From an uncultured virus (IMG/VR IMGVR_UViG_3300018417_002450) (lineage: Duplodnaviria; Heunggongvirae; Uroviricota; Caudoviricetes), in the IMG/VR virus record IMGVR_UViG_3300018417_002450: a stretch of DNA of 20,000 nt. The stretch is one strand, 5' to 3'. Positions 4,087-13,556 of this stretch are shown here, one piece after another. The translations under genes and the position numbers were made by a program. The stretch's first letter is position 1. Each line of letters begins with the position of its first letter. The notes beneath the pieces are model-generated. The model had not been told where the DNA came from. It ran no database searches and worked only from the letters and a program-made list of their open reading frames with translations.

Positions 4087-4506
4087 ATGAATATGGTAGA
4101 AGTCAAAGGTGGTCCTGCTAAAGAACGGGAAATCGTTGAGCAAACCGTGTACTGGTGTATTAAGAAATTAATGCCAAGAGTTCGCACTTTAGATATTGAA
4201 GTCAAATTGACAAAGTGTGACGCATATGGCTATTGCTTAATGACTGACAATCATAAAACATTTGAGTTAGAAATTCGTAAAGGAATGAACTTATACGATT
4301 TAATTAGTACTGTTTGCCACGAAATGGTTCATGTTAAGCAATACTATCGTAAAGAAATGGATGATGATAGCAATCGTTGGAAGTCTAAGCAATTAGGTGA
4401 TATGAATTATGTGGATCGTCCTTGGGAAAAAGAAGCATTTCGTATGGAAGAAAAATTGGCTGTTGAATGCTTCAAAAATATTGCAATAAATTTTGCAAAA
4501 AAGTGA
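4087..4506 (+). CDS. Zincin-like metallopeptidase domain protein (HExxH)
   Basis: TVCHEMVHVKQY and downstream PWEKEA motif. GGAG RBS at 4075-78. Confidence 0.8.
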   Translation: MNMVEVKGGPAKEREIVEQTVYWCIKKLMPRVRTLDIEVKLTKCDAYGYCLMTDNHKTFELEIRKGMNLYDLISTVCHEMVHVKQYYRKEMDDDSNRWKSKQLGDMNYVDRPWEKEAFRMEEKLAVECFKNIAINFAKK

Positions 4507-4526
4507 AAAAAAGTGAAAAAAAGGGT
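4497..4526 (+). repeat. 10-bp-phased A-tract repeat (UP-element-like)
   Basis: AAAAAAGTGA AAAAAAGTGA AAAAAAGGGT directly abutting the -35 box. Confidence 0.7.
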
Positions 4527-4553
4527 TGACATTTCGTAGAAAAGGTATATATT
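4526..4553 (+). promoter_or_regulatory. sigma70-type promoter driving the structured RNA
   Basis: TTGACA (4526-31), 16 nt spacer, TATATT (4548-53). Shares GTTGACATTTC with the 4029 promoter. No protein start follows. Confidence 0.7.
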
Positions 4554-4561
4554 AATAATAT

Positions 4562-4910
4562 AAGGAATGAGGGAATAGGCCACGACGCTATCACCTTCGG
4601 GTAAAAAAGCATGACGGTAACGAATCTTATTCCTTTTATCTGGTGAATATACCGCCCGTGAAATACCGGTGACGTGAAACCCAGATAGTCTGTAGCCTGG
4701 CGCAGACGTTAAACTTCGCCCAGGTAGCAATTCAAAGTTTTCACTCGACGGAGTGAGATTGTGGTGACTGAATAATCCCTTACAAACGGGGATAAGGTAA
4801 TATCGAAGGATCTTAGCGGATCGCCTTAGCGGGTGCAGGTAGGTACGGGCCGAGTCGGACAGGTAGTTTGTCAGTGGCGCTGTTGAAGGAAAACCTAATC
4901 CTTCCCACAC
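4562..4910 (+). ncRNA. Large structured non-coding RNA A (~350 nt), family unassigned
   Basis: GC-richer, no + strand ORF, own promoter. More than 10 helices found by eye, e.g. 4562-71/4626-35, 4637-43/4681-87, 4688-93/4702-07, 4711-16/4735-40, 4741-46/4751-56, 4760-64/4905-09, 4885-90/4899-4904. Two loop pairings and a cUUCGg loop. Confidence 0.7.
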
Positions 4911-4916
4911 ATTTAT

Positions 4917-4924
4917 TATAAATA
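4917..4924 (+). promoter_or_regulatory. T4-type late promoter (TATAAATA)
   Basis: Exact box 27 nt upstream of ATG 4952 (GAGG RBS). Confidence 0.75.
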
Positions 4925-4951
4925 GTGGTATGAACACTAAAGAGGAATAAA

Positions 4952-5221
4952 ATGCCAGTTACAGCAAATACAGATCTAACCGCGTTAACCGTTGCTCAAA
5001 TTAATGAATTACTAGACGACGCAGGATCTGAAATTATAGTTGATGGTGCTACCTATATTGGTAGAAATGCTTCTGATGAATATCAGTGGGAAGTAACTTA
5101 TGACTCTCCACAAGCAAATGCATATGTCACGAATCATGCTTTTGTTGATGTTCATTTAGATGGCGAACCATTTATAGCATTAAATGATTTGGTAGAAGAA
5201 GACGATATTTTTGCTGAATAA
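4952..5221 (+). CDS. Small, extremely acidic hypothetical protein (89 aa)
   Basis: AGAGGA RBS and late promoter. 19 Asp/Glu, 1 Arg, 0 Lys. Confidence 0.8.
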   Translation: MPVTANTDLTALTVAQINELLDDAGSEIIVDGATYIGRNASDEYQWEVTYDSPQANAYVTNHAFVDVHLDGEPFIALNDLVEEDDIFAE

Positions 5222-5226
5222 GAATT

Positions 5227-5492
5227 CTCTGAGGCAGCGGCGACAATTATAAGAGCGCCAGTCTAAAACTCAGAGCAGACGATGTGACTTAGGTCGTTAT
5301 ATCATTTGTCTGATACGCGGTAACGACCTATGCCTGAATTGCCCGTCGGTTCAGGAAGAAATCTAAATACGTGCTCATTGCACACGAGACGTATAGGGCG
5401 GGCCATATTTGAGATAGGCAAATCCCAAGGCAACCACGCCGCCTATCAATCGGCAGAGTAAGACTCGGATTAACAATGGGTGTCACTCAGAC
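5227..5492 (+). ncRNA. Multi-pseudoknot non-coding RNA B (~265 nt), family unassigned
   Basis: Helices 5227-33/5269-75, 5276-82/5306-12, 5333-38/5350-55, 5367-72/5389-94, 5413-19/5441-47. Loop pairings 5290-99/5321-30 (10 bp perfect), 5341-47/5397-5403, 5421-25/5467-71. Ends at a terminator. Confidence 0.7.
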
Positions 5493-5495
5493 GAG

Positions 5496-5524
5496 AAAGG
5501 GAGAGCTTCGGCTCTCCCTTTTTT
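5496..5524 (+). terminator. Rho-independent terminator, possibly bidirectional
   Basis: AAAGGGAGAGC-TTCG-GCTCTCCCTTT then T-tract, between convergent transcripts. Confidence 0.92.
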
Positions 5525-5526
5525 AT

Positions 5527-5838
5527 TTACTTACGAATAGCGTCAGCACCAAAGAAGGCTGCAACTAAAGCTGAAATAGCAACAAAATATGTTGGAGCAA
5601 TATCACCAACAATAGCTGCTGCAGTATCTAAACCAAAATATGATGTTAAGACAATTGCAAATGGATAGAGTAGCATGCCAAATAAAGCAAACCATGTCAT
5701 TCCACGCATCGCATCCCGCTGTGCGTCTTTATCTTCTAATTCTTTTCTTTTAAATTCAAGATACATTTCGCGCTCAACGTCGTCTACAACGCCATCGCCA
5801 TTTGTATCTGCTGGATGATAACTTTTATCTTCAGCCAT
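5527..5838 (-). CDS. Small two-TM membrane protein with N-terminal EF-hand-like loop (holin-like size and topology)
   Basis: DTNGDGVVDDVE loop. Hydrophobic segments WFALFGMLLYPFAIVL and YFVAISALVAAFFG. AGGAG RBS. Confidence 0.75.
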   Translation of the reverse strand: MAEDKSYHPADTNGDGVVDDVEREMYLEFKRKELEDKDAQRDAMRGMTWFALFGMLLYPFAIVLTSYFGLDTAAAIVGDIAPTYFVAISALVAAFFGADAIRK

Positions 5839-5888
5839 TTTAGTCTCCTATATTATTAAAATCAAACATGCCGAAGAATTCACCTAAC

Positions 5889-5900
5889 TATTTATAAATA
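5889..5900. promoter_or_regulatory. Overlapping divergent T4-type late promoters
   Basis: Palindromic TATTTATAAATA gives TATAAATA on - (5889-96) and on + (5893-5900), between divergent genes. Confidence 0.8.
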
Positions 5901-5904
5901 TACT

Positions 5905-6120
5905 ATGTATATAACACCATGCATAGGCGTTTGCATAGCAGATCCAGAGACTCGGCTATGTCGAGGCTGCAAAAGAACTGTATGGGAAATACGAAATTGG
6001 AATAATTATACAGATGAAGAGCGCATGAAAGTAATGCGTAGACTTGGCTATGGAAAACGAAAAAAACGTATAAATAATAAAAACGCTAATAGTCATATAG
6101 GAGACGAAGATGGCACTTAA
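5905..6120 (+). CDS. DUF1289-family small Cys-rich (metal-binding) protein
   Basis: TPCIGVC...LCRGCKRTVWEIRNW...ER pattern characteristic of DUF1289. Confidence 0.8.
   Translation: MYITPCIGVCIADPETRLCRGCKRTVWEIRNWNNYTDEERMKVMRRLGYGKRKKRINNKNANSHIGDEDGT
6069..6076 (+). promoter_or_regulatory. T4-type late promoter (TATAAATA) for structural/enzyme operon
   Basis: Exact box 33 nt upstream of ATG 6110 (AGGAG RBS). Confidence 0.75.
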
Positions 6121-6304
6121 AGTAACGGGCAATACAGTCGTATCTGATACACTTATTTTATCAAACATCGCCAACACAGATGTAACCACAGATACTACAA
6201 TTAATTCATCTATTATCAAGCAAGGTAATGTTTTACGTATTTACGATTCTGCTGGAGATGAGATTAGAACTCTTTGGTGCGCTGCAACAACAGCAGTGAC
6301 TTAA
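6110..6304 (+). CDS. Small Thr-rich putative virion protein
   Basis: Good RBS and late promoter. MALKVTGNTVV start and beta-rich composition resemble small fibre-associated proteins. Confidence 0.65.
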   Translation: MALKVTGNTVVSDTLILSNIANTDVTTDTTINSSIIKQGNVLRIYDSAGDEIRTLWCAATTAVT

Positions 6305-6319
6305 TAAGGAGTCAAAATC

Positions 6320-8131
6320 ATGGCAGTACGTTTACCTTTAGCCGCACAACCAGTAGACGGCGATACCGCAGGTCTTCAAATTTTTGAAATGGCAAGTGCA
6401 GGCGTTGATAACATTCATAAATTTGCTACTTATGCATATGCTCAAGATCCTTCAGTAAATCTTGAAGTTGATACAGCAAATGGTACTCTATTAAGTGGAC
6501 AACCTTTTGTCGATACTTACTATGTTGCTGGCGCTTATAGTACTAGAATAGATCGTTATGCTACAGAAGCAGAAACAGCTAATATTGTATTAACAACAGA
6601 TAATTATAACAGATTAAGATATGTTCTTGATTCTGTTACGTTACCAACTGGTGACACGAACGATACTCAATTTCCTCTTTATCTGTATAATGCTCAAGGA
6701 ACTTATGGCGGAGAAAATCCAAATAATCCAAATACGCATATGAGATGTATGACTCGCCAGGACTTTATTGATACATTTGTACTGCCAGCATTATCGATGA
6801 TGGATTCCGACGGTTTTTATAACGGAACAAACAATATAGAGCAAAACGGTACTTATTTTTTAACTACGACCAATACACCGACTAATGCTACAGTTGTTTC
6901 AAACACTCCCGTAGCAATCAACAGTGAAGCTAATGCTGGTGCTTATCAAGCTGCTCAAATTCCTGAAGCTGTAAAGCAAACTGTTGATGTAAACTATTAT
7001 ATCGCAAAAGTAGATTTCCCAGCAACATCGTACGCAATTTATGACGCTGTTTTAGGAACTTATGACTTGCCTTTATATTTTAATTCAGGCGATGAGATGA
7101 TATATCAGCATACACCAACAACTTGGTCAAACCTAATAGGACCTTTCCTAAGATATTATTTTGGAACTGCTGGCTCAGGATATGATTATACGTATAGTTT
7201 ATCGGCCGGCACACAAAAAGGAACAACATACGTTGATACTCGTTTGACTAACTCAAGCACATACGAGCAGCGTTTTGTTAATGCAGATGATTATCGCACG
7301 CAAGAATTTCCTAATGGTACGCAAACAACAATTAGCGCCAACCAACAAATTCTTTATATTAACAGAGCAGGAACACCATCTTATGGTGCATCTTCTAATC
7401 CATCAGGTTCAGTAAGTGAAGGTGCATCAGTTACATTTACACTCACTACAACGAACGTATTAGATGGAACAAACTTTAATTACGCAATTACGGGTATTAC
7501 GGCTGCAGACATTACATCTGGAAGCTTGACCGGCACAGTAACCACGAGCTCAGGTGCTGCTTCTACATCCATCACACTTAAAGTAGATGGATTAGCAGAA
7601 AGCGAAACAGCAACATGCACATTTACTACTCCAGGCGGTGATAGATCTGTAGCGGTAACTGTCACTGATGTCGCTGAATCAGTATCTCTAGAAGGTACAA
7701 CTTCCACTGCGCATTCTACAGGTCATCTACCATTATCTGATGGCGGTATTGATATGGGTTGGAGATTTAATTCTGATGGTACTATTGATGATTGGGATGA
7801 AGATGCAACACCTCAGTTCTCTGGTGGCCGCAATGCCGTTACACACCAGGATTGGTGTAATGTATCACCGCCAGTTGGAACGTATTGGATTAGAGCAACA
7901 GAATATGCATCAACTACTGGCGGTAATCATAGTTGGACCAATTCTACACATAATCTAAATACATGGTATCAATTAAATACAAACCGTTTATGGAATTTTG
8001 AAGATAATAGTTTGACTGCTTCGTATGTTGGTAGATCAGTAACACTTAAAATTGATATCGCTTCAGATTCAGGTGGTTCGACCATTGTTGCAACAGGATA
8101 CTATATGAGTTTTTATGAAGGCGGAGCATAA
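6320..8131 (+). CDS. Virion structural / tail-fibre-associated protein with Calx-beta/Ig-like domain
   Basis: TAAGGAG RBS. T/S/G/A/Y-rich and Lys-poor. SVSEGASVTFTLTTTNV...TGITAADI...ITLKVDGLAESET resembles a Calx-beta-like Ig module. Trp-rich C-terminal domain. Confidence 0.7.
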   Translation: MAVRLPLAAQPVDGDTAGLQIFEMASAGVDNIHKFATYAYAQDPSVNLEVDTANGTLLSGQPFVDTYYVAGAYSTRIDRYATEAETANIVLTTDNYNRLRYVLDSVTLPTGDTNDTQFPLYLYNAQGTYGGENPNNPNTHMRCMTRQDFIDTFVLPALSMMDSDGFYNGTNNIEQNGTYFLTTTNTPTNATVVSNTPVAINSEANAGAYQAAQIPEAVKQTVDVNYYIAKVDFPATSYAIYDAVLGTYDLPLYFNSGDEMIYQHTPTTWSNLIGPFLRYYFGTAGSGYDYTYSLSAGTQKGTTYVDTRLTNSSTYEQRFVNADDYRTQEFPNGTQTTISANQQILYINRAGTPSYGASSNPSGSVSEGASVTFTLTTTNVLDGTNFNYAITGITAADITSGSLTGTVTTSSGAASTSITLKVDGLAESETATCTFTTPGGDRSVAVTVTDVAESVSLEGTTSTAHSTGHLPLSDGGIDMGWRFNSDGTIDDWDEDATPQFSGGRNAVTHQDWCNVSPPVGTYWIRATEYASTTGGNHSWTNSTHNLNTWYQLNTNRLWNFEDNSLTASYVGRSVTLKIDIASDSGGSTIVATGYYMSFYEGGA

Positions 8132-8724: not shown

Positions 8725-9426
8725 ATGCCTTATATAGATAATGAGCTGACAGCGATGGTTGACCTTTCAACGTATTGCAACGCATCTTGTCCCCAATGTC
8801 ATAGAACAGACCAAGAAGATATTTCTAAAAAAAACTATTGGCTTCCTTTAGTTCAATGGTCGTTTGAGACTTTTAAAAAAAGATTTCCAGTACAATCTCT
8901 TTATAGATACAAGCAAATAATTTTTTGCGGCACTTGGGGTGACCCAATGATGAATAAAGACATTATGGAAATCATAAGATATGTTTTATCAAGTAATAAC
9001 AAAACTATTGTCATTGTTAACACAAACGCAAGCCTAAGAGATGAAACTTGGTGGTGGGAACTTGGCATGTTAAGTTACAAATATCATCACAGGCTTGAGG
9101 TCATATTTGATGTTGATGGCATTACACAAGAGCAGCATGCTAGATATAGGGTAGGAACGGAGCTTGATAAAGTTTTAACTCATATGCGTGCTTATACAGA
9201 GTCTGGATCAATTGCTAAATGCTTCACTATCGTATTTGAACACAATCAAGACGACGTTGAAAAAATAGGTGAATTAGCTAAAGCAAATGGTGCAATAAGT
9301 ATGTACATCCAACCGTCAAATAGATTTGATAAAAATCCAGAGCAGTTTAGATATATACAAGAAGGAAAAATACGACACTTAAAACCACCTACAAAATATA
9401 CTGAATTTAAGGTAATAGGACTATGA
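8725..9426 (+). CDS. Radical SAM protein (core domain only)
   Basis: CNASCPQC (CxxxCxxC), FCGTWGDPMM, VNTNAS, FDVDG. Confidence 0.9.
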   Translation: MPYIDNELTAMVDLSTYCNASCPQCHRTDQEDISKKNYWLPLVQWSFETFKKRFPVQSLYRYKQIIFCGTWGDPMMNKDIMEIIRYVLSSNNKTIVIVNTNASLRDETWWWELGMLSYKYHHRLEVIFDVDGITQEQHARYRVGTELDKVLTHMRAYTESGSIAKCFTIVFEHNQDDVEKIGELAKANGAISMYIQPSNRFDKNPEQFRYIQEGKIRHLKPPTKYTEFKVIGL

Positions 9427-9809
9427 AAAAAATACGATGTTCTTTCTTTGAAAAAAATGAATTAAATATAAATCCAGATGGTCAGGTGTATCCATGCTGC
9501 TTTTTTGCTAATACTCTTTTTCTAGCAAAACAATTTGGATATCCTAAAAGGGGTGATATAGATCTTAGAGAAATAGATAGTAATCATATTCAAAACGGAT
9601 TGCAAAACTCTGAAGCTATAGCCGTAGGAGTCATAGATAATAATCCAATATATAAAGAGTACGTTGAAAATGAAGCTGATTATAATTTAGATAATAAAAG
9701 TATTACTGAAATCGTAAACTCTGAGTGGTATACTAAACTTGAAGAGTCTCGTAAAACTTGGGATACTGCCCCTCAAGTATGTAAAAATTGGTGCACTATT
9801 AGTGACTAA
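9423..9809 (+). CDS. Stand-alone SPASM/twitch-like Fe-S domain protein
   Basis: RC...INPDGQVYPCC...NLDNKSITEIVNSEWY...VCKNWC. ATGA overlap with upstream stop. Confidence 0.8.
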   Translation: MKKIRCSFFEKNELNINPDGQVYPCCFFANTLFLAKQFGYPKRGDIDLREIDSNHIQNGLQNSEAIAVGVIDNNPIYKEYVENEADYNLDNKSITEIVNSEWYTKLEESRKTWDTAPQVCKNWCTISD

Positions 9810-10494
9810 ACTTATTAATTTCTATAATCGTTCATATGGCAAAGCTGAGCATTTAAGAAAGCCTGGTACTAGAAATATTAATATGGACATAACTAATAGA
9901 TGTACTCTAGCATGCCTAACATGTGAAAGACAATGGCGTATTCAATTAAAGGGAAAAGTTGCGGGCGAAGTTTTATCAGTGTCTGATTTTGAAAAATACA
10001 TACCGTGGTTTGACCATTTTGATTTTTGTGGACAAGTTTCAGATCCTAGCATGCATCCTGAGTTTGATAAAATTTTAGAACTTGTAGCAAAAAATGATAA
10101 GAGTGCTGATATTCATAACACTGCTTCTCAAAGACCAGAGAAATGGTATAGAAGAATGTTTGATATATCAGCAGGTACTAGAATAGCCTGGCGTTTTGGA
10201 ATAGATGGATTACCAAAAGATTCGCATAAATACAGGACAAGGCAAGACGGACAAAAGTTATTTGAAATGATGTCTATTGCTGCAAAATACAATCCTAAAA
10301 TTACAATTTATTGGAAATACATTATTTTTAATTATAATCAAAATGATATAGAAGTGTGTAAACAAACGGCCAAGGACTTAGGAGTAATATTTAATACCGT
10401 CAACTCAAGAAGACATCCGCCAGGTTTAAGGCCAGACGAGGCATTGACTTCAAAACTTGCTATGGACAATTCGTATTTTTATCCAGATGACTGA
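9802..10494 (+). CDS. Radical SAM protein (core domain only)
   Basis: CTLACLTC, FCGQVSDPSMHP, HNTAS, FGIDG. GTG 9802 overlapping the upstream gene end is a more likely start than the track's 9739. Confidence 0.88.
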   Translation: MTKLINFYNRSYGKAEHLRKPGTRNINMDITNRCTLACLTCERQWRIQLKGKVAGEVLSVSDFEKYIPWFDHFDFCGQVSDPSMHPEFDKILELVAKNDKSADIHNTASQRPEKWYRRMFDISAGTRIAWRFGIDGLPKDSHKYRTRQDGQKLFEMMSIAAKYNPKITIYWKYIIFNYNQNDIEVCKQTAKDLGVIFNTVNSRRHPPGLRPDEALTSKLAMDNSYFYPDD

Positions 10495-10828
10495 AAAATT
10501 TAAACCAATATGTATGACCAACACAGAAGGCATGGCTCACACTTGCTCAGGTCATTTAATTCCGTGCTGTCACCTTGATTATGTTGCTAATTGCGATCCT
10601 GCGTATAGAGAATTACTTAAAGACGAATTAAAACTATCAAACAACGATAGTGTAGAAGACATATTAACTTCTGATGAATGGCTAAATTTTGGGCGAGCTG
10701 TTTTTAAAGGATTAAACGAAGGAATAGAATATGCTCCTACGTCTTGTCAAAGAAAATGCGGTCCAAAAGATGGTTGGGATCCAAAACAGACTTTTAAACT
10801 AAACGAGTATCCCAAAGGTTGGAAATGA
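10487..10828 (+). CDS. Stand-alone SPASM/twitch-like Fe-S domain protein
   Basis: PIC...GHLIPCC...SVEDILTSDEW...SCQRKC. ATG 10487 chosen as start. Confidence 0.78.
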   Translation: MTEKFKPICMTNTEGMAHTCSGHLIPCCHLDYVANCDPAYRELLKDELKLSNNDSVEDILTSDEWLNFGRAVFKGLNEGIEYAPTSCQRKCGPKDGWDPKQTFKLNEYPKGWK

Positions 10829-11925
10829 AACATTATTGTGCAGCTCCTTTTACACATATATCTATTGACCCACGAGGCGTGCTGCTTCCATGTTGTAGAT
10901 ATAAAAAACCTTTATCAAACTTAGATGAAGAGAGAATAGACGAAGGTTGGAATAATCAAAACTTTCAGGATTTAAGAAATCAATTTTTAAATGGTGAAAA
11001 GCCCGAGGCTTGTTCTGATTGTTGGCACGCTGAAGAGTCAGGTAACCAAAGTTTAAGAAGTGTTATTAATGGTTGGGCTCGTAATAAAAAGTTTGACTCA
11101 GCAATAGTAACAGACGGACCTGTTTATTATGAATTTAAAACAACTAATGTATGTAATCTTAAATGTCGCATGTGCGGTTCTTTTAATTCAAGTCAAATTG
11201 CAAAAGAAACAGAATTAATAGCAACACGTAAGCATTATTTAAAACATAAATTGATAGGTACACATCATGAGCCTATCGTATATGAATGGCTTAAGAAAGC
11301 AGATTATATTCTCTTTGCTGGCGGCGAGCCATTTGTTAATGAAGAAATCAAAGAGATCATGTCTTATATCGATGATCAAGATTTAAATCATATTAGAACT
11401 TTAATAGTAACAAATGGAACTCATTGGAATGATAAGTTTGTAAAGCAATTAAAAACGTTGTGGGATTTAGATATAAGGATTAGCTTAGATGATATATATG
11501 AAAGAAACGATTACCAAAGGGAAGGTTCTGATTTTAATATAATTGAACAAAACTTTATTAAGTTTTCAAAAAACTTTTATGGAAAGGTGACGTTTAATTG
11601 CACTTTAAATTGGTATAATATATATCATATAGATGAATTTTTAGAATATGCTGACGACTTTAATACGCCCGTGTCAATACAATACGTGGAAAATCCGTCA
11701 TATTTAAATATTAGCAATTTACCGATAGCTATAAAAGAAATTGTTTGTAATAAATTTAAAGATACGAAAGACGAAAGAATTAAAAAAATTATAAGACGAA
11801 TGATGATTGATGGCGAAGATCAATCTGATAAATTTTGGAAACATATAAATTATTATGATAAGCTGAGAGGCAACGATTTTAGAGTTGCTTTCCCAGAGTG
11901 GAGTAAGATTCTTGAGAGCGTGTAA
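10825..11925 (+). CDS. Radical SAM protein with N-terminal SPASM/twitch domain
   Basis: YCAAPF...LPCC...CSDC, then CNLKCRMC, AGGEPF, VTNGT, ISLD. ATGA coupling at 10825. Confidence 0.9.
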   Translation: MKHYCAAPFTHISIDPRGVLLPCCRYKKPLSNLDEERIDEGWNNQNFQDLRNQFLNGEKPEACSDCWHAEESGNQSLRSVINGWARNKKFDSAIVTDGPVYYEFKTTNVCNLKCRMCGSFNSSQIAKETELIATRKHYLKHKLIGTHHEPIVYEWLKKADYILFAGGEPFVNEEIKEIMSYIDDQDLNHIRTLIVTNGTHWNDKFVKQLKTLWDLDIRISLDDIYERNDYQREGSDFNIIEQNFIKFSKNFYGKVTFNCTLNWYNIYHIDEFLEYADDFNTPVSIQYVENPSYLNISNLPIAIKEIVCNKFKDTKDERIKKIIRRMMIDGEDQSDKFWKHINYYDKLRGNDFRVAFPEWSKILESV

Positions 11926-12961
11926 CGCACCCTTCAACAACATGTATATTACACTTCAAGGCAGGGTTTCCCCTTGCTGGAAACTGCCTGGGTTTTGCGA
12001 GACTTGGAGTAAAGATAAATCTTTAATGGATATATGGCAAGGTGAAACGTTTCAAAAATACAGAGATGCTTTAAGTCAAAATGTATTTTTAGATCGGTGT
12101 ATGGAATGCAAAAAAGATATTGATAATAATATCTGGCCATTGGCGAAAGCATACGAAAAGTTTCCAGTAAATACTATGCCATCTCTTATGGAAATTGAAT
12201 TAAGCAATCAATGTAATCTTGAATGCATTATGTGTAATGGTAATTTAAGTTCCGGCATTAGAAAAAACAGAGATAAGCTTCCTCCTTTACCTCAAATATT
12301 TGATAATTCGTTTTTAGAACAAATGCGAGAGTTTATTCCACACCTTACTGAATTAAGAGTAAATGGTGGTGAGCCTTTTGCTCAAAAAATATTATTAGAT
12401 TTACTTGATGTTGTAGCTGAAATTAAACCGGAGCTTAAAGTTAATATCGCGACTAATGGTACTGTTTATAACAAAAGAGTTCAAGGAATACTTGATAAAT
12501 GTAATATCCATTTAAATATTAGTATTGATAGTTTAATTCCAGAACGATATGAAGAAATACGAGTAAATGGTAACTTTGTTACGCTTATGAAATACTTTGA
12601 TATATTTAAAAATTATTGTCATACAAATAACCGAAGTTTATCCATTATGGTTAACCCTATGAATATGAATTGGGATGAGATGATAGAGTTTGTAAGGTTT
12701 ACTGATAAACACAAATGCAATCTTTGGTATAATACTATTTTATATCCAACACATGTTACGCTTAAACATTTACCCGGCACAAAGCTTGCTGCGATTATTG
12801 ATGATATGAAAAAAGAACTAAATACAATTATAGGTTTTAGAAACTATGACAAAGCAGAACATCTAATAAGCCAATTAGAAAACTGGTGCTTAGATTCTTT
12901 AGATGGAACTCGAATTGATTTATATACTGATGGAGGGAGTTTGATTAATGCAACCCGATAA
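11912..12961 (+). CDS. Radical SAM protein with N-terminal SPASM/twitch domain
   Basis: CNAPF...SPCW...CMEC, then CNLECIMC, NGGEPF, ATNGT, ISIDS. TTG 11912 has GGAG 8 nt upstream (track start 11885). Confidence 0.9.
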   Translation: MRACNAPFNNMYITLQGRVSPCWKLPGFCETWSKDKSLMDIWQGETFQKYRDALSQNVFLDRCMECKKDIDNNIWPLAKAYEKFPVNTMPSLMEIELSNQCNLECIMCNGNLSSGIRKNRDKLPPLPQIFDNSFLEQMREFIPHLTELRVNGGEPFAQKILLDLLDVVAEIKPELKVNIATNGTVYNKRVQGILDKCNIHLNISIDSLIPERYEEIRVNGNFVTLMKYFDIFKNYCHTNNRSLSIMVNPMNMNWDEMIEFVRFTDKHKCNLWYNTILYPTHVTLKHLPGTKLAAIIDDMKKELNTIIGFRNYDKAEHLISQLENWCLDSLDGTRIDLYTDGGSLINATR

Positions 12962-13556
12962 TATTATATTTGTAAAACATGGTACTAAATATAATGCTGA
13001 GCATGTAAACAGATTACGTGACCAACTTATGGAATATTATAAGTGTGCTTATATGTGTTATACCGATGATCCGATTGGTGTTGAAATTGAAACAATACCA
13101 TGTTTTAAAAAACCAACTTTAAAATATTGGTGGAACAAGTTGGCCATGTTTAGTAAAGATTTTCCAGCACGAGGTAAATGTTTATTCTTTGATTTAGATA
13201 TGGATATAAAACGCGATCCATCAGAATATCTGAAGTGGAATGGCTTAACAATAATAAAAGACTATTGGAAAGATGATTTGTATATGGCCCCGCATGCTTA
13301 TGACGTGCACATAAATAGTTCTGTAATTACGTGGACCGCAGGTGAACAAAATCATATATGGGAACACTTCTTATCTAATAAAGATTATTTTATGAGAAAG
13401 TATGCAGGCATTGATAGATTTTTAGTTCACGAAGGTTTAAAATTTAACACGTTTGAGCACGGGCTGGTTAACAGCGTCGCTAATCCTTCTGAATGGAATG
13501 CGCCAATTGATATGTATAATGGATTAAAATATGATGTACAAAGAAGAAGTTTATAA
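12948..13556 (+). CDS. GT-A fold glycosyltransferase (GT8-like)
   Basis: VKHGTKY, CYTDD, WWNKLAMF, FFDLD (DxD), INSSV, GIDRFL. Confidence 0.8.
   Translation: MQPDNIIFVKHGTKYNAEHVNRLRDQLMEYYKCAYMCYTDDPIGVEIETIPCFKKPTLKYWWNKLAMFSKDFPARGKCLFFDLDMDIKRDPSEYLKWNGLTIIKDYWKDDLYMAPHAYDVHINSSVITWTAGEQNHIWEHFLSNKDYFMRKYAGIDRFLVHEGLKFNTFEHGLVNSVANPSEWNAPIDMYNGLKYDVQRRSL

Follow-up and report, generated by a model that had tools for sequence, protein, structure and literature searches.

A probable early transcript of separately folding RNA modules, including a divergent manA RNA, in an uncultured marine T4-like phage

We analysed a stretch of 20,000 nt from an uncultured virus (the window), in which positions 4556–4914 of the plus strand are non-coding and hold no conserved ORF. 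This segment probably opens an early phage transcript in which four separately folding modules, M1 (4562–4635), M2 (4637–4687), M3 (4688–4725, or to 4740 with a hairpin present in the window only) and a manA RNA (4741–4914), lie upstream of an 89-codon ORF. The closing stems and the pseudoknot of M3 covary (the M1 stem with one-sided changes only), M1, M2 and M3-type modules occur separately and reshuffled in related phages, and related arrays run from the promoter to a terminator hairpin without any ORF, or into tRNA genes. The manA RNA is known, and M1–M3 together with the cassette-like shuffling look new.

Judged by its proteins, the source is an uncultured marine T4-like phage, a protein-level relative of Pelagibacter phage Mosig and Methylophilales phage Melnitz (protein searches gave 33% identity over 350 residues and 50% identity over 124), and sister contigs imply genomes near 190 kb by CheckV-type estimates. 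A DNA search of 50,697 phage records returned no match to 4500–4950 in distant mode or to the whole window in near mode. Further along the window, at 8725–13556, the phage carries a run of ORFs with radical-SAM/SPASM domains and, behind it, glycosyltransferase-like ORFs.

Promoter, terminator and transcription unit

Downstream of a 139-codon ORF on the plus strand (4087–4506), which forms the upstream flank of the RNA stretch, lies a sigma-70-type promoter, TTGACA-16-TATATT (4526–4553, plus strand), that matches the consensus at 11 of 12 positions and has a predicted transcription start near 4560, with M1 beginning 2 nt later. A promoter scan is uninformative by itself (8 sites observed versus 8.2 expected). 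A near-identical promoter, flanks included, heads arrays in several of the related loci that we compared (L185/L186, L173/L175, L250–253, L255 and L259), and this sharing, together with the absence of a conserved ORF, bears out an earlier sequence-only reading of the region as a structured non-coding RNA behind its own promoter. No terminator-like site was found on the plus strand within 4556–5492, and the first one after the promoter is an intrinsic terminator at 5493–5524 that combines a stem of 14 pairs with a T run; thus 4556–4914 is the front ∼350 nt of a ∼970-nt unit. This unit also contains the 89-codon ORF, directly downstream of the RNA (4952–5221, plus strand, preceded by the RBS AAGAGGA at 4940–46), and a second non-coding stretch (5222–5492), and past the terminator lies a convergent 103-codon gene (5527–5838).

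The product of the 89-codon ORF belongs to no Pfam or PHROGs family, and its structural look-alikes occur solely in virus-only clusters. Five of its eight strain differences fall at third codon positions, and a pattern search for its relatives in viral contigs gave 14 stretches, none of which was confirmed. The non-coding stretch 5222–5492 folds somewhat better than its shuffles (z −1.90, 8/200), matches no Rfam family, and among the loci compared has a homolog only in the window's own metagenome copy. An ORF of 176 codons on the minus strand (4407–4937) was considered as coding and rejected, as it has no Pfam family and, in the homologous M1–M2 stretch of L183, an indel and stops disrupt its frame. 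ARAGORN found no tRNA or tmRNA in the window, and 4300–6400 matched no such Rfam family.

The stretch is contained in 20 of the 24 public runs listed, and six of these 20 are RNA libraries; marine and salt-marsh metatranscriptomes are among the data sets that contain it. For the RNA libraries, assembled contigs only were compared, from four RNA runs of four studies. Contigs identical to the window span 4578–4873 and 4595–5093, and loose contig ends join M1 to the modules Z or X or to an M2 variant in co-occurring relatives. None of the 17 pieces lies in 4300–4547, their 5′-ends vary (4548, 4578, 4595, 4607 and 4680), and one of them carries letters of the promoter spacer, hence we infer from them neither where transcription starts nor whether the upstream gene is silent. 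These contigs attest presence and are no proof of a transcript, as they may derive from DNA, and their ends and strand are not shown.

The four modules

The 3′ half is manA RNA (Rfam RF01745) of a divergent phage subtype, since the covariance model matches 4741–4914 on the plus strand over its whole length (model positions 1–192 of 192) with 51.4 bits and an E-value of 1e-11. The curated (gathering) cut-off of RF01745 is 55.2 bits, which leaves the window 3.8 bits short, and for this reason manA is missing from the list at gathering thresholds, where the window has no Rfam match. The nearest relatives among the matches listed are L158 and its copies, L098 and L122. As L158 and L122, with 42 and 39 bits, fall below the cut-off as well, the window manA belongs to a divergent subgroup. 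The motif was first described in 2010 by Weinberg et al., whose account of it places it commonly in potential 5′ UTRs and gives no known ligand (PMC2864571), and it has been annotated in cyanophages (PMC9964418).

The window shares with the family the alignment to the whole model, a 5′ hairpin with a GACG loop (UCACUC-GACG-GAGUGA, 4741–4756), the junction words GUGACUGAAUAA and UAAGGU, which flank a hairpin (4764–4798), the closing helix of UGUGG (4760–64) with CCACA (4905–09), and the multi-helix junction. It differs from the family in that its middle helices are partly non-canonical, that the family loop–loop pairing is shrunk to 3–4 possible pairs in a shifted register, and that three further RNA modules precede it. 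Thus two helices noted in the sequence-only reading belong to manA, UCACUC/GAGUGA as its 5′ hairpin and UGUGG/CCACA as its closing helix, and what was seen there as a pseudoknotted multi-helix 3′ domain is manA, a family that has a loop–loop pairing.

The pattern of the two junction words found at least 120 stretches in viral contigs, from which 106 distinct full-length segments were cut. The alignment holds 27 of these 106, picked for diversity with window-type sequences forced in, and keeps at least two rows that resemble chance pattern matches (L090 and L119). Both GUGACUGAAUAA and UAAGGU are invariant in 27/27 aligned sequences, all of which were collected by that very pattern. In the closing helix, 95.4% of cells are paired and four of the five pairs show compensatory changes; for the family loop–loop pairing, which joins the last hairpin to the inner hairpin of the fifth helix, the figures are 81% of cells and three of four pairs. 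At that site the window offers only AGGU (4861–64) with ACCU (4893–96), one column out of register, and the three window-type sequences do not vary in these words. The alternative pairing of ACCUA (4893–97) with UAGGU (4840–44) that had been proposed for the last loop is not conserved in the family, with 45% of cells paired in the 27 sequences versus 59% for a control slid by one column. Moreover, a strain variant from an RNA library (96% identity over 4637–5700) has four letters of the manA 5′ hairpin changed with every pair retained, one of these changes being double (U4745C with A4752G).

M1, right behind the predicted start, is a domain closed by a 10-bp stem of AAGGAAUGAG (4562–71) with CUUAUUCCUU (4626–35), and its conserved core contains two CAYGACG words and a predicted ACC-UUCG-GGU hairpin that shows no variation in relatives; compared with shuffles, its fold has a z of −2.25 (9/200). 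Homologs with 91–95% identity are present in L173, L175, L250–253, L255 and L267, and M1 is always the first element behind the promoter. The 5′ strand of the stem is invariant, and four different 3′ strands stay paired with it via one-sided G–C/G–U exchanges, with a single A·A mismatch in L173/L175. The helix predicted earlier is therefore kept, and the one-sided changes are compatible with a helix and do not prove one. In L259 (760–809, minus strand), the M1 closing stem stands behind the same promoter and encloses another core, similar to that of module Y, which indicates that stem and content are exchangeable independently.

In M3, a hairpin of GUCUG with CAGAC (4688–92 with 4703–07) carries the loop GCCUGG (4695–4700), which pairs with CCAGGU downstream (4720–25); the fold compares with shuffles at a z of −2.47 (2/200). 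BLAST found no M3 homologs. The design of M3 recurs as the 3′ part of module X in five loci (L173, L174, L179, L259 and L261), with a shared layout of a hairpin with the loop UAGCCUG..., then GUUA..AAAC and then the loop-pairing stretch. Over six distinct sequences, three of the four pairs of the hairpin stem are compensatory, and the pseudoknot has two invariant pairs, two with one-sided changes and one compensatory pair (G–C to A–U in L261); because the window hairpin is one pair longer, it stands out of register in this alignment. The hairpin and the GCCUGG/CCAGGU pairing were both part of the sequence-only reading and are supported by these six sequences, the kissing loops described there are not: the AU-rich second hairpin (AAACUU/AAAGUUU, 4711–16 with 4734–40) exists in the window only, with no counterpart in relatives, so that the loop pairing is best taken as a pseudoknot. 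A scan for further M3/X variants gave 11 stretches, six of them the known loci and five chance matches.

In M2 (plus strand), the stem P1 of UAUCUGG (4637–43) with CCAGAUA (4681–87) presents a core of ∼37 nt (4643–4680), and its fold compares with shuffles at a z of −3.31 (1/200). P1, which had been proposed from the window alone, comprises eight pairs, is paired in 93% of cells and has three compensatory pairs in 13 distinct sequences, in which the core varies at just four positions. A degenerate pattern of the core (4652–4672) found 11 viral stretches, nine real and two by chance; looser patterns gave 20/61 real and 41/61 chance stretches in viral contigs and 26/30 real and 4/30 chance stretches in metagenomes. 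Across 185,579 prokaryote genomes the pattern hit three stretches, each of them within coding sequence and due to chance. A covariance model of M2 run on 44 sources (198,804 bases) gave 82.1 bits for the copy in the window, and otherwise three weak partial matches with E-values of 0.23–0.9. With L258, the metagenome copy of the window, counted in, M2 is known from 28 distinct flanking contexts: it is a stand-alone array hairpin in nine and an arm of a separate ∼190-nt RNA in the other 19.

This ∼190-nt RNA is seen at L196 (570–820, minus strand) and at 14 further loci (L172, L180, L182, L195, L202, L212, L226, L260, L262, L269, L273, L277, L283 and L286). A long, covarying helix (CCUC/GAGG, CUGC/GCAG and CAGC/GCUG) closes this RNA and in some loci covers AAGGAG just ahead of ATG. 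Downstream of it lie a MazG-like ORF of 93 codons, other small ORFs, or none. Neither M2 nor the ∼190-nt RNA has an Rfam match.

Arrays in related phages

The window array is composed of promoter, M1, M2, M3, manA, ORF, the non-coding stretch 5222–5492 and terminator. In L173/L175, the promoter is followed by M1, M2, X, a long tRNA-like element and tRNAs; in L250–253 by M1, Z, W and a tRNA; in L255 by M1, a tRNA-like element and a tRNA; and in L185/L186 by X, M2, Y, Z, a terminator hairpin and the convergent 103-codon gene. The L185/L186 promoter equals that of the window almost letter for letter, and the 103-codon gene downstream is the counterpart of window 5527–5838. RNA arrays that run from promoter to terminator without an ORF are seen in L185 (minus strand, ∼1270–1675), L186, L261 and L278, and these ORF-free arrays sit at the position of the window array relative to the convergent gene. 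In the L185 array the promoter is confirmed and the longest stop-free frame is 59 codons, so that it is a dedicated RNA gene, and the content of these ORF-free RNA genes is variable. The tRNA-like element of L173, L175 and L255 stands directly ahead of ordinary tRNA genes; it has a stem like that of an acceptor arm and a T-arm with GGUUCGAUUCC, and ARAGORN calls it neither tRNA nor tmRNA. The four modules of the window are known in a single order only, in the window, in its metagenome copy L258 and in one strain variant, which leaves room for cooperation among them. Among the 36 loci found via the upstream gene, L122 alone matches 4520–4950 by blastn, and within its manA only. In L121, the closest by that gene at 86% identity, the promoter region is immediately followed by a protein gene, and there is no RNA.

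Such an array would be transcribed early by the host polymerase. Each module would then be an autonomous unit that may bind a protein, a ligand or another RNA, where binding of a factor or ligand is suggested by fixed cores held on covarying stems. The modules might remain exposed on the transcript, or be freed from it as small stable RNAs like the tRNAs of the sister arrays, and M1, whose stem starts 2 nt past the predicted start, could serve as a 5′ terminal clamp. Recombination at the borders of modules, and at the promoter and terminator that the arrays share, may give rise to the variety of arrays.

The manA RNA, which ends 38 nt upstream of the start codon with no terminator between, may also influence the 89-codon ORF, and a cis-acting leader role is possible for this part. 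Extended to the whole stretch, the modules would form a multi-domain 5′ leader controlling the ORF in cis, with manA and perhaps M2 as ligand-sensing aptamers in a tandem riboswitch-like arrangement. We consider this unlikely. It agrees with the cis-regulatory type given to manA in Rfam, with the potential 5′ UTRs named in the account by Weinberg et al. (PMC2864571), and with the helix over AAGGAG that ends the M2-containing ∼190-nt RNA in some loci. However, the modules also occur in the ORF-free, terminator-ended arrays described above, inspection of 4905–4955 by eye gave no convincing alternative pairing for an expression platform, and no RNA-carrying relatives of the 89-codon ORF were found in viral contigs. 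Moreover, window-type manA adjoins or lies between tRNAs in L158 and its copies, lies ahead of tRNAs in L122, and lies between the end of an ORF and a terminator in L098. These positions, ahead of an ORF, behind one and between tRNAs, and the string of other RNA modules that it joins in the window speak against purely cis-regulatory action of manA, which has counted as an orphan riboswitch candidate from 2010 onwards, and favour a trans-acting or factor-binding function.

One RNA or several, and comparison with known systems

GOLLD and ROOL are large structured RNAs associated with phages that often lie close to tRNAs and have no assigned function. The sequence-only reading took the ∼350 nt for one ornate RNA with near-continuous pairing, a compact relative of these two, in which a single architecture would unite all helices. 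The parts are indeed co-transcribed from one promoter and adjacent without spacers, window-identical contigs from RNA libraries bridge M1 to manA, and the manA family has its loop–loop tertiary pairing. However, the whole stretch (4555–4915) does not outdo shuffles in fold stability (z −0.73, 23/100 shuffles as good; minus strand z +0.42), and only the pieces M1, M2 and M3 stand out. Every part is found without the others elsewhere, there is no conserved pairing between modules, and the long-range pseudoknot that had been proposed lies inside manA and is not conserved. Among the families named in that reading manA matched, whereas GOLLD, ROOL, RNase P and tmRNA did not, and no GOLLD, ROOL or other large-RNA match appeared at E ≤ 10 in scans of 4300–6400 and 4540–4760. 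The likeness to GOLLD and ROOL is that of phage-associated structured RNAs in general; membership would call for one conserved large architecture, whereas the stretch is much shorter, composite and without a match to their covariance models, and its parts occur apart and in other orders. We therefore regard a single large RNA as very improbable.

Equally hard to credit is the idea that the stretch is recombination debris, fragments of RNA genes in a hyperplastic region that are transcribed and functionless save perhaps for manA: the region is variable among close relatives (L121 lacks the RNA), window-type M3 is found nowhere else, and M2 of the window stands alone as a copy of one domain of a larger RNA, but the M2 core is conserved over 13 distinct stem contexts with a covarying stem, M3 is unchanged in the strain variant, which differs at 38 other letters and by two indels over 4637–5700, and M1 is kept at 91–95% identity in several types of array.

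Separately folding modules on one early transcript thus account best for these observations. A further step, which we put forward tentatively and hold to be plausible with a chance somewhat below even, is that M1, M2 (with the ∼190-nt RNA) and M3/X are new RNA families which, together with manA, make up promoter-to-terminator cassettes of marine T4-like phages that are swapped module by module, their invariant cores acting as decoys or docking sites for a host or phage factor. M1, M2 and M3/X have no match in Rfam 15, and a lax Rfam scan of the M1–M3 region (4540–4760) gave two chance snoRNA-like matches only. In the literature consulted, including the portions of PMC2864571, PMC9964418 and PMC9004378 that concern such RNAs, no description of M1–M3 was found; the Melnitz article (PMC9004378) mentions a phage tmRNA and a glutamine riboswitch. 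A catalogue of 2023 lists 8,495 candidate viral RNAs (PMC10690425), which may include M1–M3, and the M2 core has 0 occurrences in the non-alignment files of its supplement.

The tRNA region of phage T4 encodes the small stable RNAs species 1 and 2, which are structured and of unknown function. Like these, the modules are structured RNAs of T4-type phages, and in relatives of the window they are co-transcribed with tRNAs from an early-type promoter; unlike these, the window has no tRNA gene, and window-type modules are reshuffled between phages. A nearer parallel in layout is offered by PeSLs, promoter-terminator cassettes described as mediating modular shuffling in T4-type phages in the passages of PMC2839356 and PMC4122927 that deal with them. 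As in those descriptions, an early promoter and a terminator hairpin, both conserved, enclose content that varies strongly among closely related T4-like phages; the PeSL units are protein genes, whereas window-type units are RNA modules within one transcription unit. If the reshuffling is true, a mode of genome plasticity so far described for protein genes would extend to RNA domains, and the locus would be a compact place where abundant marine phages keep changing their toolkit of structured RNAs, resembling a hyperplastic region of protein genes built of RNA domains. For probing, pull-downs and ligand screens, M1–M3 offer concrete, inexpensive targets, the M2 core above all.

A bolder possibility is that the M2 core might imitate rRNA and titrate an rRNA-directed factor. 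A local alignment of M2 with E. coli 16S rRNA is not significant (62/500 shuffles), and shared 8-mers cover 27 of 44 nt, a value reached by 14/5000 shuffles and by 38/2726 random phage segments, so that the word sharing is modestly unusual as a post hoc observation without a mechanism. The words shared, of 8–10 nt, are GGTGAATA (at 1370 of the 16S rRNA), ACCGCCCGT (1398) and AATACCGGTG (715); they fall in conserved parts of the 16S rRNA, and ACCGCCCGT is the decoding-site strand.
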